From Anabaena sp. 54 (lineage in GTDB: Bacteria > Cyanobacteriota > Cyanobacteriia > Cyanobacteriales > Nostocaceae), in contig OMJF01000154.1 of assembly GCA_900299285.1 (NCBI GenBank), positions 4,306 through 68,305 on the forward strand: DNA of 64,000 bases, read 5' to 3'. Below are positions 57,011-60,751 of this stretch, one piece after another. Below the pieces are notes generated by a model, which saw nothing but the letters and a program-made list of their open reading frames with translations, did no database searches and was not told the DNA's origin. The position numbers and the translations under genes are program-made. Position 1 is the first letter of the stretch; each line of letters begins with the position of its first letter.

Positions 57011-57961
57011 TTAACTGGAAAATATAGGATGACATTGAGGAAGAATATCAAATAATTCAAATTCAGGTTTGACATCAAAAATATTAGGTGGTATTGATTC
57101 CATCATATCAAGTTGCTGTAGTAAATAAGATATAATAATGGGATCAATATCACTAACAATACTATGTCTTCCTTCTTCTATAGCCACTCTTGTAGTCACA
57201 CAACTACCAGCAAAAAAATCTAAAACAACTGAACCAGGATAAGATAGAGAACGAACAATGCGCTGAATTAATTGACGAGGTTTTTGAGTTGGATGTCCTA
57301 CACGCTCTTTAGAATTTCCATTTAATCTGGGTATTTTCCAAACATTAGTGGGGTTACGTCCTTTTTCAACACTTTCAGGACGTAAACGTTTATCTTTCAT
57401 ATATTCAATTTTGGTTACTTCATCAAAAGGTTCTCGTACTGCATCTAGATCAAAATAGTATTTTGAAGTCTTTCCAAACCAAGCGATTTCTTCATGACGA
57501 TTAGCAAAAAAACGATGGGCGCTCATCCCATTTGGATAATTCCAAATAATGAGATTTACCAATCGCATTTTACTATTATATCGCATATCATTTATTAATG
57601 TTAATAAGTCTCCAGAACCAGCTTCATCTTGATATTGTAATCCGCCAAAGATGACTATATTTCCTGTTTCTGACAAAACACGCTCAGATTCTCGCAACCA
57701 ACGAGAAGCCCAATTTAGATAATTTTCATGTATATCCCAATTGGCTAATTTTATGTTATATGGTGGATCACATACAATTAACTGTACTGAATTATCAGGT
57801 AAGAGAGATAATAAATCACAACAATCCATAATTAGAGAACTATGAAATGTTTTTTTCGGTTTTTCCGTTGAAATTATCTGTTCAGAAGCATGAGCTAAAC
57901 CACGCTTTTTTATAGCGTTCATTCCGATATGTTTTGTATTATTTTGGGAACGATTACCCAT
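57011..57961 (-). CDS. beta-class N6-adenine DNA methyltransferase, M.RsrI-like (predicted GAATTC)
   Basis: DPPY near the N-terminus, FFAGS near the C-terminus; blocks [64 protein letters not shown] match M.RsrI as recalled. Confidence 0.9.
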
Positions 57962-57962
57962 A

Positions 57963-60650
57963 TTAAACCTCTATATAATCTAAATCAGTTAAATGGTAAT
58001 TTTCTGTTAAAAAATCACTTCCAAAAAGTTCACGCACAATACTTAAATTGTGATTATCCAACATATTAGCATTATTTGGCCATGCTGCTTTTACTGCTTC
58101 ATATCTTGCTTGAGTTAATGTTTCATCCTCATCTTTAATAGATTTAACTAAATTGGGAATTAACATTAATTTTTTGATTGTAATATCTGAACGGTTAATT
58201 TCTATGATCCCACAAGCATTAAGTATATTTAACAAAAAAGGACATCTACGCTTTGATGCTTTCTCTGTAGCTGGTTCAATTCCTTCTTGTTCACAAAAAC
58301 GTTTCACAAAGGGTGTGGAAAAGAAATCTTGATAGATTCTCTGTTTTTCTACTGTATTATTCCTAACTATATGATACAAGAAAGCCATCATTTGCTGTAC
58401 TGCTGGTACATTTAGAAACAATTCTAAAACAATTTTTTTAGCCCGCTTATCTCGTTGTATTGTATTCATAATAAATTGATTATAATACAATTCTTGATAT
58501 ACCATTTGAGTGCTAGGTATATCACCTTCTTTTGAAGGAAAACTCAAATTAATATTTCCCAGTGCTAGTTCTAAAATTTGACGAAGTTTAAAACCTAAAG
58601 CAGTTAAAGTAGGTTTCCAATCTTGATTATCTGGTATTTTTCGATCATCTTCTAAAATTCCTAACTCCATAGCGGCTTGCAATTTATACTTTAGTTGTCG
58701 TTGATAACCACTAATGCGATCATCTTTATCTAATTTACCACGCATTCTAATATAACGTTTATCAAAATGAGTTTTATCTTGTGATGGTAAGCCAAAATAC
58801 CAAAGAATAGATAATATATGTCCTAAATGAGTACCTTGAGGATAATGATAGCTTGCTTCTGTATACTCACCTACATCTTGTAAAAATTTCAGCCATGTTT
58901 GCCAGCTTTGAGTATATAAATTACTTTTGTATTTTCCCTGTTCATCTAAATCTTGTTTTGTTGGTTTACTTTGTAATCTTTCAGCTAGTTCAAAATAAGC
59001 ATTTTTAAGATCATCTTTATCTATTCCTAAATCTTCAGCATCTTGTCTATTTAAAATTTCTTCTACTTGCTCATCAAATTTTACTTCACATCCAGTTGAA
59101 TACTCATAAGTTAATTTTTTAATACGCTTACCATTTTCTTCTTTTACCTCCTGACTACTGCTTTTAGCTAAATATTTTCGTACTTGATTAGCGCGTTTAT
59201 AATTACCAATAAAGTCTAGTATTCTCACTCTATCTTTACCGGTACATAAGCGTAAACCTCTACCTAACTGTTGCAAGAAAACAGTTTTTGATTCTGTTGG
59301 ACGCAAGAAAAGAAGTACACGAATATTAGGAAAGTCAATACCTTCATTAAATAAATCTACTGTAAATACTACTTGATAATTATTATTACGAAAACTCTCA
59401 ATTAAATTATCGCGGTTTGCACTACGAGAATGTATTGCAATTGCTTTTACTCCATTGTCATTAAAAAACTCAGCCATTCTATCTGCGTGTTCTATGGAAA
59501 CACAAAAACCAATGGCTTTATCCCCTGTACCTTTATCTTCATCTAAATATGCTTTTAATATAGCTTCATTTCTTTCAGGAATAATTAAGAGTCTTTCCAA
59601 ATCATCAACTCGATAACTTTGATTTTGATAACGGATTTTAGAATAATCAACATTATCGGTTAATCCTATATAAGTATAAGGAACTAACAAACCACGTTCA
59701 ATTACTTCATTGAGAGAAATTTCATAAATATTATTATATTCAAATAATTCAAATATATCTTTTCTATCAGTTCTATCTGGGGTTGCTGTCATTCCCAGCA
59801 TAAATTTTGGTTGGAAGTATTTTAGTAATGATTGATATGATAATGTTTGACTATGATGAACTTCATCAATAACAATATAATCAAAGTAATCACGAGTAAA
59901 CTTTGCTAATTCTTCTGATTGTCTTAATGTATCTTTACTAGCAAATAAAACATCACATTCTTTTTCTCTATACTTTTCTTCACCTGTTAGTTTTCCTTCA
60001 TTAAGATTTCCCCACACTTTACGGTATGCCTCTATACTTTGTGTTAATATATCTAGCCTATGAACTACAAATAAAACACGGCCACCCATGCGTTTTGCAT
60101 CTAAAGCAGATAAAATAGTTTTACCTGTACCAGTGGGCATAATGATTATACCTTTATTCCACTTTCTAACCTGACGTACATATTCTAAGCTATGTAATAC
60201 TTCATTCTGAATTTGGTTAGGTTCAAGACTATAATTATTCAGTAAATTAGAAGCATATTTAGCAATTAAATTATGAATACTATCTTTAACTATTTCTCTC
60301 CATCTTGCAGATTGTAATTGATTATATGAAAAACGTAGTAGTTTATAACCTCGTCCCAATATCTCATTTTGACGGAATAAATTATCATCAAATTGTTCAT
60401 CTGGTATGATTCCCTCAGCGTGATAACTTTCTCCATTGACTTCAAAGGCAATTTTTACATTATTCTCATCATCGTGATATGCAAAATCAATACGTCTGTT
60501 TTTACCGGTGCTATCAATAAAAACATACTGTGGCTCTATTTTACCAATATTTGATTGTAGTAAGGGATAAAGAAACTCCTCTATAAATAAGCGTTCAGAT
60601 GCTTGAGTTATACGAGAACCATATTTTCCGTAGTATTCTTCAATGTTCAT
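57963..60650 (-). CDS. Vsr/DUF559-like nuclease fused to SF2 (ResIII-type) helicase and unknown C-terminal domain
   Basis: RRIDFAY...[11 protein letters not shown]...[17 protein letters not shown]; helicase motifs [36 protein letters not shown]. Confidence 0.88.
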
Positions 60651-60672
60651 AATTTATTTTTAATTTATACTG

Positions 60673-60751
60673 AATTATTATAATAAAGATTGTGTTTTTT
60701 ATGCAACCACAGCTAAAATATCGTTAATTTCCTCAATATTTGTCACATATC
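60673..60751 (-). repeat. 79-bp direct repeat copy 2, containing TTGCAT-N18-TATAAT promoter
   Basis: Identical to 56683-56761; 22 nt upstream of the ATG at 60650. Confidence 0.93.

Follow-up and report, generated by a model that had tools for sequence, protein, structure and literature searches.

A two-gene cassette pairing a Vsr-like nuclease-helicase with a predicted GAATTC methylase as a candidate ATP-dependent restriction-modification system

A 64,000-nt stretch of DNA from the cyanobacterium Anabaena sp. 54 (GenBank assembly GCA_900299285.1, contig OMJF01000154.1, positions 4,306 to 68,305; hereafter the window) carries on its minus strand, in a genome island, two adjoining genes, one encoding an 895-aa protein that joins a nuclease-like domain, a helicase motor and a C-terminal domain, the other a 316-aa DNA methylase close to M.RsrI. 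Judged from sequence comparison, the pair is probably a restriction-modification system that combines a GAATTC methylase with a single-chain ATP-dependent nuclease. This interpretation had been put forward in an earlier sequence-only reading of the region (57011-60751) and is supported here by comparative genomics, in particular by the linkage of the two genes across phyla, the relatives of the methylase and the exchange of the C-terminal domain among unrelated nucleases.

Results

Two adjoining genes encode a nuclease-helicase and a DNA methylase

According to the list of open reading frames (ORFs), the 895-aa ORF occupies 57963-60650 and the 316-aa ORF 57011-57961, both on the minus strand of the window. 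At the junction (...GAGGTTTAA-T-ATGGGT), a single nucleotide separates the TAA stop of the helicase gene from the methylase ATG; the TAA-T-ATG arrangement described in the sequence-only reading is therefore borne out by the ORF coordinates and the junction sequence. A Shine-Dalgarno-like GAGG motif is located within the 3' end of the 895-aa gene, just upstream of the methylase start codon, and the methylase is probably translationally coupled to the gene preceding it. Both ORFs are full length with every catalytic motif present, and both lie in a low-GC stretch (~52.6-60.7 kb, GC 0.30-0.35 versus ~0.38-0.40 nearby). The remainder of the region, 60651-60751, is 5' untranslated, promoter-like sequence upstream of the 895-aa gene.

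Coverage of both genes by lake metatranscriptome contigs is nearly unbroken, and one contig spans the junction (57123-58439), consistent with co-transcription of the pair. DNA nearly identical to the window is also found in lake and freshwater metagenomes. A scan for consensus promoters and terminators returned sites that were no more numerous than in shuffled sequence.

The N-terminal domain of the 895-aa protein (residues 1-135; 60246-60650, minus strand, as for all its domains below) has only a weak Pfam match by itself (MTES_1575, PF18741, E 0.002). Its AlphaFold model (pLDDT 90) is more informative and agrees with the nuclease-like N-terminus proposed earlier: in Foldseek searches the best match is the DUF559 protein NGO0050 (3hrl, probability 1.00, TM 0.68), together with the Vsr-like catalytic domain of I-Bth0305I (3r3p, probability 0.98) and the restriction-like nucleases of R2 elements and DrdV. 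Across 41 homologues, D55, E70, E74 and H77 are invariant within the motif DF...EVNGESYH (residues 55-77), and D55-F...E70-V-N-G-E-S-Y-H77 is a Vsr/DUF559 variant of the PD-(D/E)xK site.

This domain is followed by an SF2 DExH motor of two RecA-like domains (residues 136-490; 59181-60245). The helicase core is complete, as had been noted, with PTGTGKT at 172-178, DEVHH at 262-266, TATP at 288-291 and QQLGRGLR at 460-467, and with Pfam matches to ResIII (PF04851, 6e-35) and Helicase_C (4e-16). The best PADLOC model for the protein is mREase_IV (1.2e-76) and its closest PDB relative is SauUSI (7clg, E 1.3e-73), residues 133-590 aligning with SauUSI 212-665. A helical linker (residues 491-595; 58866-59180) contains a match to HNH_repeat (PF18780, E 8e-6) at residues 543-594. 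Because the first coupler subdomain of SauUSI comprises residues 618-669 (PMC7913695), the alignment takes in both RecA domains and this subdomain as defined in that study and, by this alignment, the linker is the equivalent of the latter. The rest of the protein is a family-specific C-terminal domain (residues 596-895; 57966-58865), proposed below to be a reader of unmethylated GAATTC.

The full 895-aa architecture is found in more than 120 protein clusters with 59-96% identity to the window protein, from Betaproteobacteria, Actinomycetota, Acidobacteriota, a Thermoplasmatales archaeon and many metagenomes. The protein is well conserved over its whole length (59-70% across phyla), including D55, E70, H77 and every helicase motif, and such full-length conservation across phyla indicates selection acting on all domains. 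A search of PLSDB and INPHARED returned no full-length family member, only relatives of the helicase core. A scan of genome contigs using the single 895-aa protein identified two true family loci only. One candidate, on a Chondrinema plasmid, shares the N-terminus and lacks a methylase neighbor; it was assigned to a different family.

The two genes are linked across phyla

We compared the window with nine independent loci (L001, L002, L005, L006, L008, L010-L013), whose gene contexts were obtained from exact-protein look-ups. In 10/10 loci an RsrI-like methylase gene lies directly 3' of the helicase gene, in the same orientation and with a spacing of at most 137 nt. These loci represent at least six phyla, their hosts being Betaproteobacteria, Actinomycetota, Acidobacteriota, Chloroflexota, CPR, metagenomic genomes and the window cyanobacterium. 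The flanks are unrelated and often contain integrases, IS elements or such plasmid genes as ParB, ArdC and RepB. Identity to the window proteins falls in parallel, from 74 to 56% for the methylase and from 70 to 51% for the helicase. Strict linkage combined with parallel divergence implies that the pair moves and evolves as one unit, and these comparisons support a self-contained, horizontally mobile two-gene cassette.

Some copies, in metagenomes, are decayed. At one locus (L090, 459-1739) the methylase is intact and the helicase gene has an internal deletion of residues 297-865; at two others (L088, 2243-2326; L052, 1584-1871) an intact methylase adjoins a helicase gene cut to its last 28-96 codons. 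Loss of the restriction gene (R) with retention of the methylase gene (M) is a typical pattern of restriction-modification systems, and the remnants beside intact methylases fit a restriction-modification pair.

These loci also bear on a different interpretation, in which the 895-aa protein is a modification-dependent Type IV enzyme like SauUSI and the methylase an unrelated or orphan neighbor. The best PADLOC model and the best PDB relative given above would both suit such an enzyme, as would the more distant Chondrinema plasmid relative with its missing methylase neighbor. However, the similarity to SauUSI is confined to the motor and the first coupler subdomain, and no PLD, DUF3427 or SRA match was found in the 895-aa protein with Pfam, leaving it without either the PLD nuclease or the SRA/DUF3427 reader of SauUSI. 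Furthermore, adjacency in 10/10 loci, a gap of 1 nt between the genes and divergence in step with one methylase family are unexpected for chance neighbors, and the loci with decayed R and intact M suit a methylase guarding against its partner. We consider a Type IV enzyme very improbable.

The methylase is a close relative of M.RsrI

The methylase (57011-57961, minus strand) matches PF01555 at 3.5e-57 and PADLOC MTase_II at 5.9e-136. The motif DPPY (65-68) precedes the AdoMet motif FAGSC (250-254), the order of beta-class enzymes, so that its class had been correctly recognized from sequence. So had its closeness to M.RsrI, to which (PDB 1eg2) it aligns without gaps over residues 1-289 with 66.1% identity (E 1.5e-130). 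M.RsrI targets the inner adenine of GAATTC (PMC7544214); the window enzyme is an orthologous N6-adenine methylase, with G-m6A-ATTC as its predicted product.

To place the methylase among its relatives, metagenome contigs were scanned with an alignment of these methylases, giving more than 509 matching stretches, of which the best 80 were classified. The flanks were too short to be informative at 24 of the 80 loci. Among the 56 that remain, the helicase gene, in full or as its C-terminal end, immediately precedes the methylase in 23, an EcoRI-family endonuclease (PF02963; representative E 1e-102) adjoins it in 12, and 21 have neither partner despite at least 1 kb of upstream sequence. Hence the link between helicase homologues and methylases, found at 10/10 loci from the helicase side, also appears from the methylase side. 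In a neighbor-joining tree of RsrI-like methylases, the EcoRI-paired enzymes are nested among the helicase-paired ones. This nesting points to GAATTC as the target of the window methylase, which very probably has EcoRI/RsrI specificity, as far as its sequence relatives tell. A caution comes from M.CjeNI, a different methylase that was assigned GAATTC and actually recognizes RAATTY (PMC3526280).

The window itself contains no EcoRI-like gene, in line with the sequence-only reading. The best tblastn match (11718-11972, E 0.058) falls in an 88-aa ORF (11673-11939) and was judged to be due to chance.

Conserved small ORFs that have no Pfam match adjoin RsrI-like methylases lacking a helicase or EcoRI partner. 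They form two clusters, one of 204-207 aa (L067, 5957-6571; L070; L071; L079) and one of 190-262 aa (L058, 3945-4733; L072; L074). These may be further GAATTC nucleases, or unrelated neighbors.

The C-terminal domain is shared among unrelated nucleases

The ~300-aa C-terminus had been described as being of unknown kind, and modeling it yields a very confident structure (pLDDT 92.9, pTM 0.91; AlphaFold) that leaves this description in place: the domain belongs to no Pfam family and fold searches of the PDB and BFVD returned nothing below E 0.4. In a profile search of PDB sequences the matches were to the HNH part of fusion proteins (see below), plus a weak one to the MarR helix-turn-helix. Weak Foldseek signals are seen for CRP/FNR, E2F-DP and the recognition domain of BpuJI, and one homologue has a weak Pfam match to E2F_TDP. 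All these weak similarities point, faintly, to winged-helix elements.

Searching the C-terminal domain alone against 1.84 billion representative proteins gave 116 matches in three architectures. The first is the helicase architecture (~890 aa) of the window protein. In the second, an N-terminal NgoFVII-type PLD nuclease precedes the domain (~550 aa; P0125, P0132). In the third, the domain is followed by a McrA-like HNH nuclease (~400-480 aa; P0163, P0190, P0177, P0205), whose identity was confirmed by the profile search of PDB sequences. Conserved motifs of the domain are YPQG.H.GH, RQ..YK, D.R and R.P.L; YPQG..GH, RQ..YK, D.R and R.P are among the residues that do not vary in any of the architectures.

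Each of the PLD- and HNH-type loci examined (6/6) adjoins a methylase gene. In two PLD lineages and one HNH lineage this is an RsrI-like methylase, 60-61% identical to that of the window; in two more diverged HNH lineages it is a different PF01555 methylase of 617-633 aa. Since the domain is exchanged among nuclease chassis with a methylase gene adjoining in 6/6 cases, it behaves like the target-recognition domain of restriction enzymes. This behavior supports the view of the C-terminal domain as a swappable DNA-reading module of a candidate restriction enzyme, and it is probably a sequence-specific, methylation-sensitive reader of GAATTC. At the diverged loci, the domain-HNH genes P0190 and P0177 are convergent with the non-RsrI methylase gene (L018, 2047-3948; L102, 2272-4125); these pairs could have the same specificity or another.

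Most carriers of the domain co-occur with one methylase family, and this could likewise be explained if the C-terminal domain docked on a methylase dimer. The helicase-nuclease would then have no specificity of its own and the methylase would supply GAATTC recognition, as Mod does for Res in Type III systems. The domain has no proven DNA-binding relative. The helicase contains a ResIII Pfam domain, and the methylase is a beta-class PF01555 enzyme, as are Type III Mod subunits; the pair thus shares with EcoP15I the combination of a helicase-nuclease and such a methylase. However, the helicase-paired methylases are intermingled in the tree with partners of autonomous EcoRI-family nucleases, have no extra domain and are 55-74% identical over their full length, with recognition regions that are not diversified as in Type III Mod. 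The pairing of diverged domain-HNH proteins with the non-RsrI methylase suits a DNA reader better than a dock, and the winged-helix signals, weak as they are, lean the same way. The organization differs as well: in Type III systems the nuclease is at the C-terminus of Res, the genes are ordered mod-res, recognition is through Mod and the sites are asymmetric and hemimethylated, whereas the window pair has an N-terminal nuclease, an extra 300-aa domain, R-then-M order and a predicted palindromic site. NCBIfam and PADLOC models of Type III systems match the pair weakly. Overall, a Type III-like arrangement seems unlikely.

The exchange of the domain also helps to weigh whether the pair is a cleaving defense at all. 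It might instead be a maintenance or repair module of mobile elements, consisting of a helicase, a nicking nuclease and an epigenetic methylase, or it might be dead in the window. Cassettes do reside on plasmids and integrative elements, with genes for ParB, ArdC, RepB and integrases beside them, Vsr-type nucleases are repair nickases, and the 21 of 56 informative RsrI-like methylases counted above have no recognizable nuclease partner. Against these possibilities, the C-terminal domain is otherwise fused to classic restriction nucleases (NgoFVII-type PLD, McrA-like HNH), and conservation of the full length across phyla indicates that all domains are under selection; the intact window ORFs with all catalytic motifs, and the detection of transcripts, point the same way. 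We regard this possibility as quite unlikely, and retain a GAATTC restriction-modification system as the preferred interpretation.

Occurrence of GAATTC in the window and at related loci

GAATTC occurs 7 times in the 64-kb window versus 24 expected, ranking 30th of 62 palindromic hexamers by depletion. Because most 6-bp palindromes are depleted there and GAATTC is mid-table, we discounted this count as evidence of specificity. Palindrome avoidance in the window is extreme, with 18 of 64 palindromic hexamers absent from the 64 kb; the hexamer CGATCG is over-represented (2.25-fold), in keeping with the HIP1 motif of cyanobacteria (GCGATCGC).

Pooling the host flanks of 11 loci outside the window, each with the methylase and the C-terminal domain, places GAATTC second among 64 palindromes by depletion (21 observed versus 54.5 expected). 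Inside ten cassettes, it is the third most depleted of 2110 hexamers (4 observed versus 16.8 expected). Depletion in the pooled flanks and cassettes lends weak support to the proposed specificity.

Genomic surroundings of the cassette in the window

From their translations we take the flanking genes to be cyanobacterial, with a PsaE-like ORF at 62451-62660 and a MutM-like ORF at 61344-62186; the closest relatives of a neighboring gene are from Dolichospermum and Aphanizomenon. Upstream of the helicase gene, a 92-nt promoter-like leader (60669-60760, minus strand) is repeated with 97% identity at 56679-56770 (direct repeat D1), where it precedes a neighboring three-gene operon. By eye the leader contains TTGCAT-18 nt-TATAAT, a site that the consensus scan did not list, and the leader may act as a promoter. 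Just past the methylase stop, a non-coding 65-nt remnant (56930-56994, minus strand) is 89% identical to 52870-52934 (direct repeat D2), in the 3' coding part of the operon's last gene, which encodes a DUF1802 nuclease-like protein. D1 and D2 frame the cassette and the three-gene operon alike, which suggests that the cassette replaced the cargo of one copy of a duplicated slot and that the 65-nt remnant is a scar of the replacement or of the duplication.

The three-gene operon (52641-56660, minus strand) encodes a 227-aa protein of no family, a 613-aa P-loop ATPase with weak KAP, AAA_16 and Sll1717 matches, and the 494-aa DUF1802 protein, whose C-terminal part bears a nuclease-like D...ECK motif. 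Conservation of the DUF1802 protein extends over Nostocales and further filamentous cyanobacteria; a Mrr_cat match occurs in one homologue. The operon has no PADLOC match; it is possibly an uncharacterized defense or DNA-processing module. Lake metatranscriptome contigs matching the methylase region and the beginning of the 227-aa gene run on, at 56231 and below, into sequence with <90% identity to the window, and for most of the operon (53585-56120) no contig matches. The sampled populations therefore carry a diverged version of the operon beside a near-identical cassette.

A NADAR-domain gene (52174-52644, plus strand; PF08719, 5e-41) lies convergent to the DUF1802 gene, facing its end. A variable short tandem repeat at 52049-52130 separates the NADAR gene region from its neighbor: contig depth there is very high, numerous loose ends read into (CAGGGAA)n-like heptamer repeats, and 4/4 metatranscriptome runs skip 49 nt at 52078-52128.

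Discussion

In the mechanism we propose, the M.RsrI-type methylase would mark the inner adenine of GAATTC on host DNA, and the C-terminal domain of the nuclease would bind the unmethylated site. Binding would then switch on the SauUSI-type SF2 motor for translocation along double-stranded DNA (dsDNA), by analogy with SauUSI itself, whose C-terminal domain, on recognizing its target, sets off ATP-driven translocation on dsDNA (PMC7913695; bioRxiv 10.1101/2025.10.16.682607). Loading in either direction would be possible since the site is palindromic. The N-terminal Vsr/DUF559-like nuclease would subsequently cut and, because each chain has one active site, a double-strand break would probably need two protomers, acting as a dimer or by a collision of the Type ISP kind. 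Type ISP enzymes such as LlaGI and LlaBIII have one nuclease site per chain, and breaks arise where two motors meet. For the nuclease, we infer its GAATTC specificity, the block by methylation, translocation and the mode of cleavage.

Several observations weigh against this interpretation. The depletion of GAATTC is unspecific, as other palindromes are equally depleted in the cassettes and most are depleted in the window. The C-terminal fold is without a characterized relative, and its DNA binding is argued from weak winged-helix similarity and domain shuffling. The R-then-M order, with no controller protein, leaves unexplained how a new host would be protected before restriction sets in. Finally, the metatranscriptome contigs may include DNA carry-over.

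Among known systems, the 895-aa protein resembles the Staphylococcus aureus Type IV enzyme SauUSI (7CLG) in its layout as a single chain of nuclease, SF2 DExH motor, helical coupler and C-terminal recognition domain, with motor and first coupler subdomain homologous (E 1.3e-73). The two differ in that SauUSI uses a PLD nuclease, reads 5mC/5hmC with an SRA (DUF3427) domain, cuts modified DNA only and has no cognate methylase, whereas the window protein has a Vsr/DUF559-like nuclease, a new putative reader domain and a strictly linked methylase. With Type ISP enzymes it shares the order of N-terminal PD-(D/E)xK nuclease, SF2 translocase, coupler and recognition domain (PMC7913695). In contrast to those enzymes, which carry a gamma-class methylase domain in the same chain and recognize asymmetric sites, the methylase is here a separate beta-class gene with a predicted palindromic site; Pfam detects no methylase domain in the 895-aa protein, and LlaBIII is not among the PDB sequence matches listed for it.

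As for protection, the pair resembles the RsrI/EcoRI Type IIP systems: the methylase is an M.RsrI orthologue with predicted GAATTC specificity, and members of its clade are found beside EcoRI-family nucleases. The partner here, though, is unrelated to EcoRI or RsrI, three times larger and equipped with an ATPase motor. A motor in company with a separate Type II methylase is known from CglI and NgoAVII, which act at unmodified specific sites with an NTP-hydrolyzing SF2 helicase-like motor (PMC4267653, PMC5861437). Those systems comprise three genes, with separate R (B3-like reader and PLD) and H (DEAD-Z1) proteins and an m5C methylase, whereas the window pair has one chain with a Vsr-like nuclease and an m6A methylase; Pfam finds no PLD, Z1 or B3 match in the 895-aa protein and places the methylase in the N6/N4 class. 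MANTIS is a four-gene system that reuses a SauUSI-like motor-nuclease against unmethylated DNA (bioRxiv 10.64898/2026.09.23.753747); it differs in needing four genes, and in that its MtsD protein has a PLD nuclease and no recognition domain. A relation to Type I systems is limited to similarity of the helicase core to HsdR models (131 bits versus a cut-off of 550), and the ORF list shows no HsdS or HsdM gene adjacent to the 895-aa gene.

By analogy, then, the enzyme would work most like SauUSI and Type ISP enzymes and be protected like a Type II system. The sequence-only reading had held that the architecture fits neither Type I, II nor III. This stands in that the defining features of Types I, III and IIP are lacking, but it was overstated, because the pair is a recombination of known modules: a SauUSI motor, a Vsr-like nuclease and a Type II methylase. 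Under current nomenclature it would probably be filed with ATP-dependent Type II systems such as CglI, or beside Type ISP. We found no published description of the system in the literature searched, which took in the SauUSI papers, a 2025 restriction-modification review and the MANTIS preprint of September 2026, REBASE being outside this search. On balance, we lean towards a restriction-modification class not described before, a 'split Type ISP' or 'SauUSI in reverse', in which a motor nuclease with its own reader would shred DNA with unmethylated GAATTC, and in which the GAATTC reader would be mounted on Vsr-helicase, PLD and HNH chassis.

If this is true, one specificity, GAATTC, would be served by at least four unrelated nucleases (Vsr-helicase, PLD, HNH and EcoRI), and simple cutters could be compared with ATP-driven shredders at the same site. 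The system would be a modification-blocked counterpart to the modification-dependent SauUSI, and a Type ISP-like enzyme with its methylase encoded separately. The C-terminal domain, a 300-aa fold that is new and confidently modeled, would be attractive for structural studies and as a tool. Present defense annotation, judged by the best PADLOC matches, would label the nuclease 'Type IV' and leave the methylase as an orphan, so that surveys of defense systems would miscount a widespread cassette.

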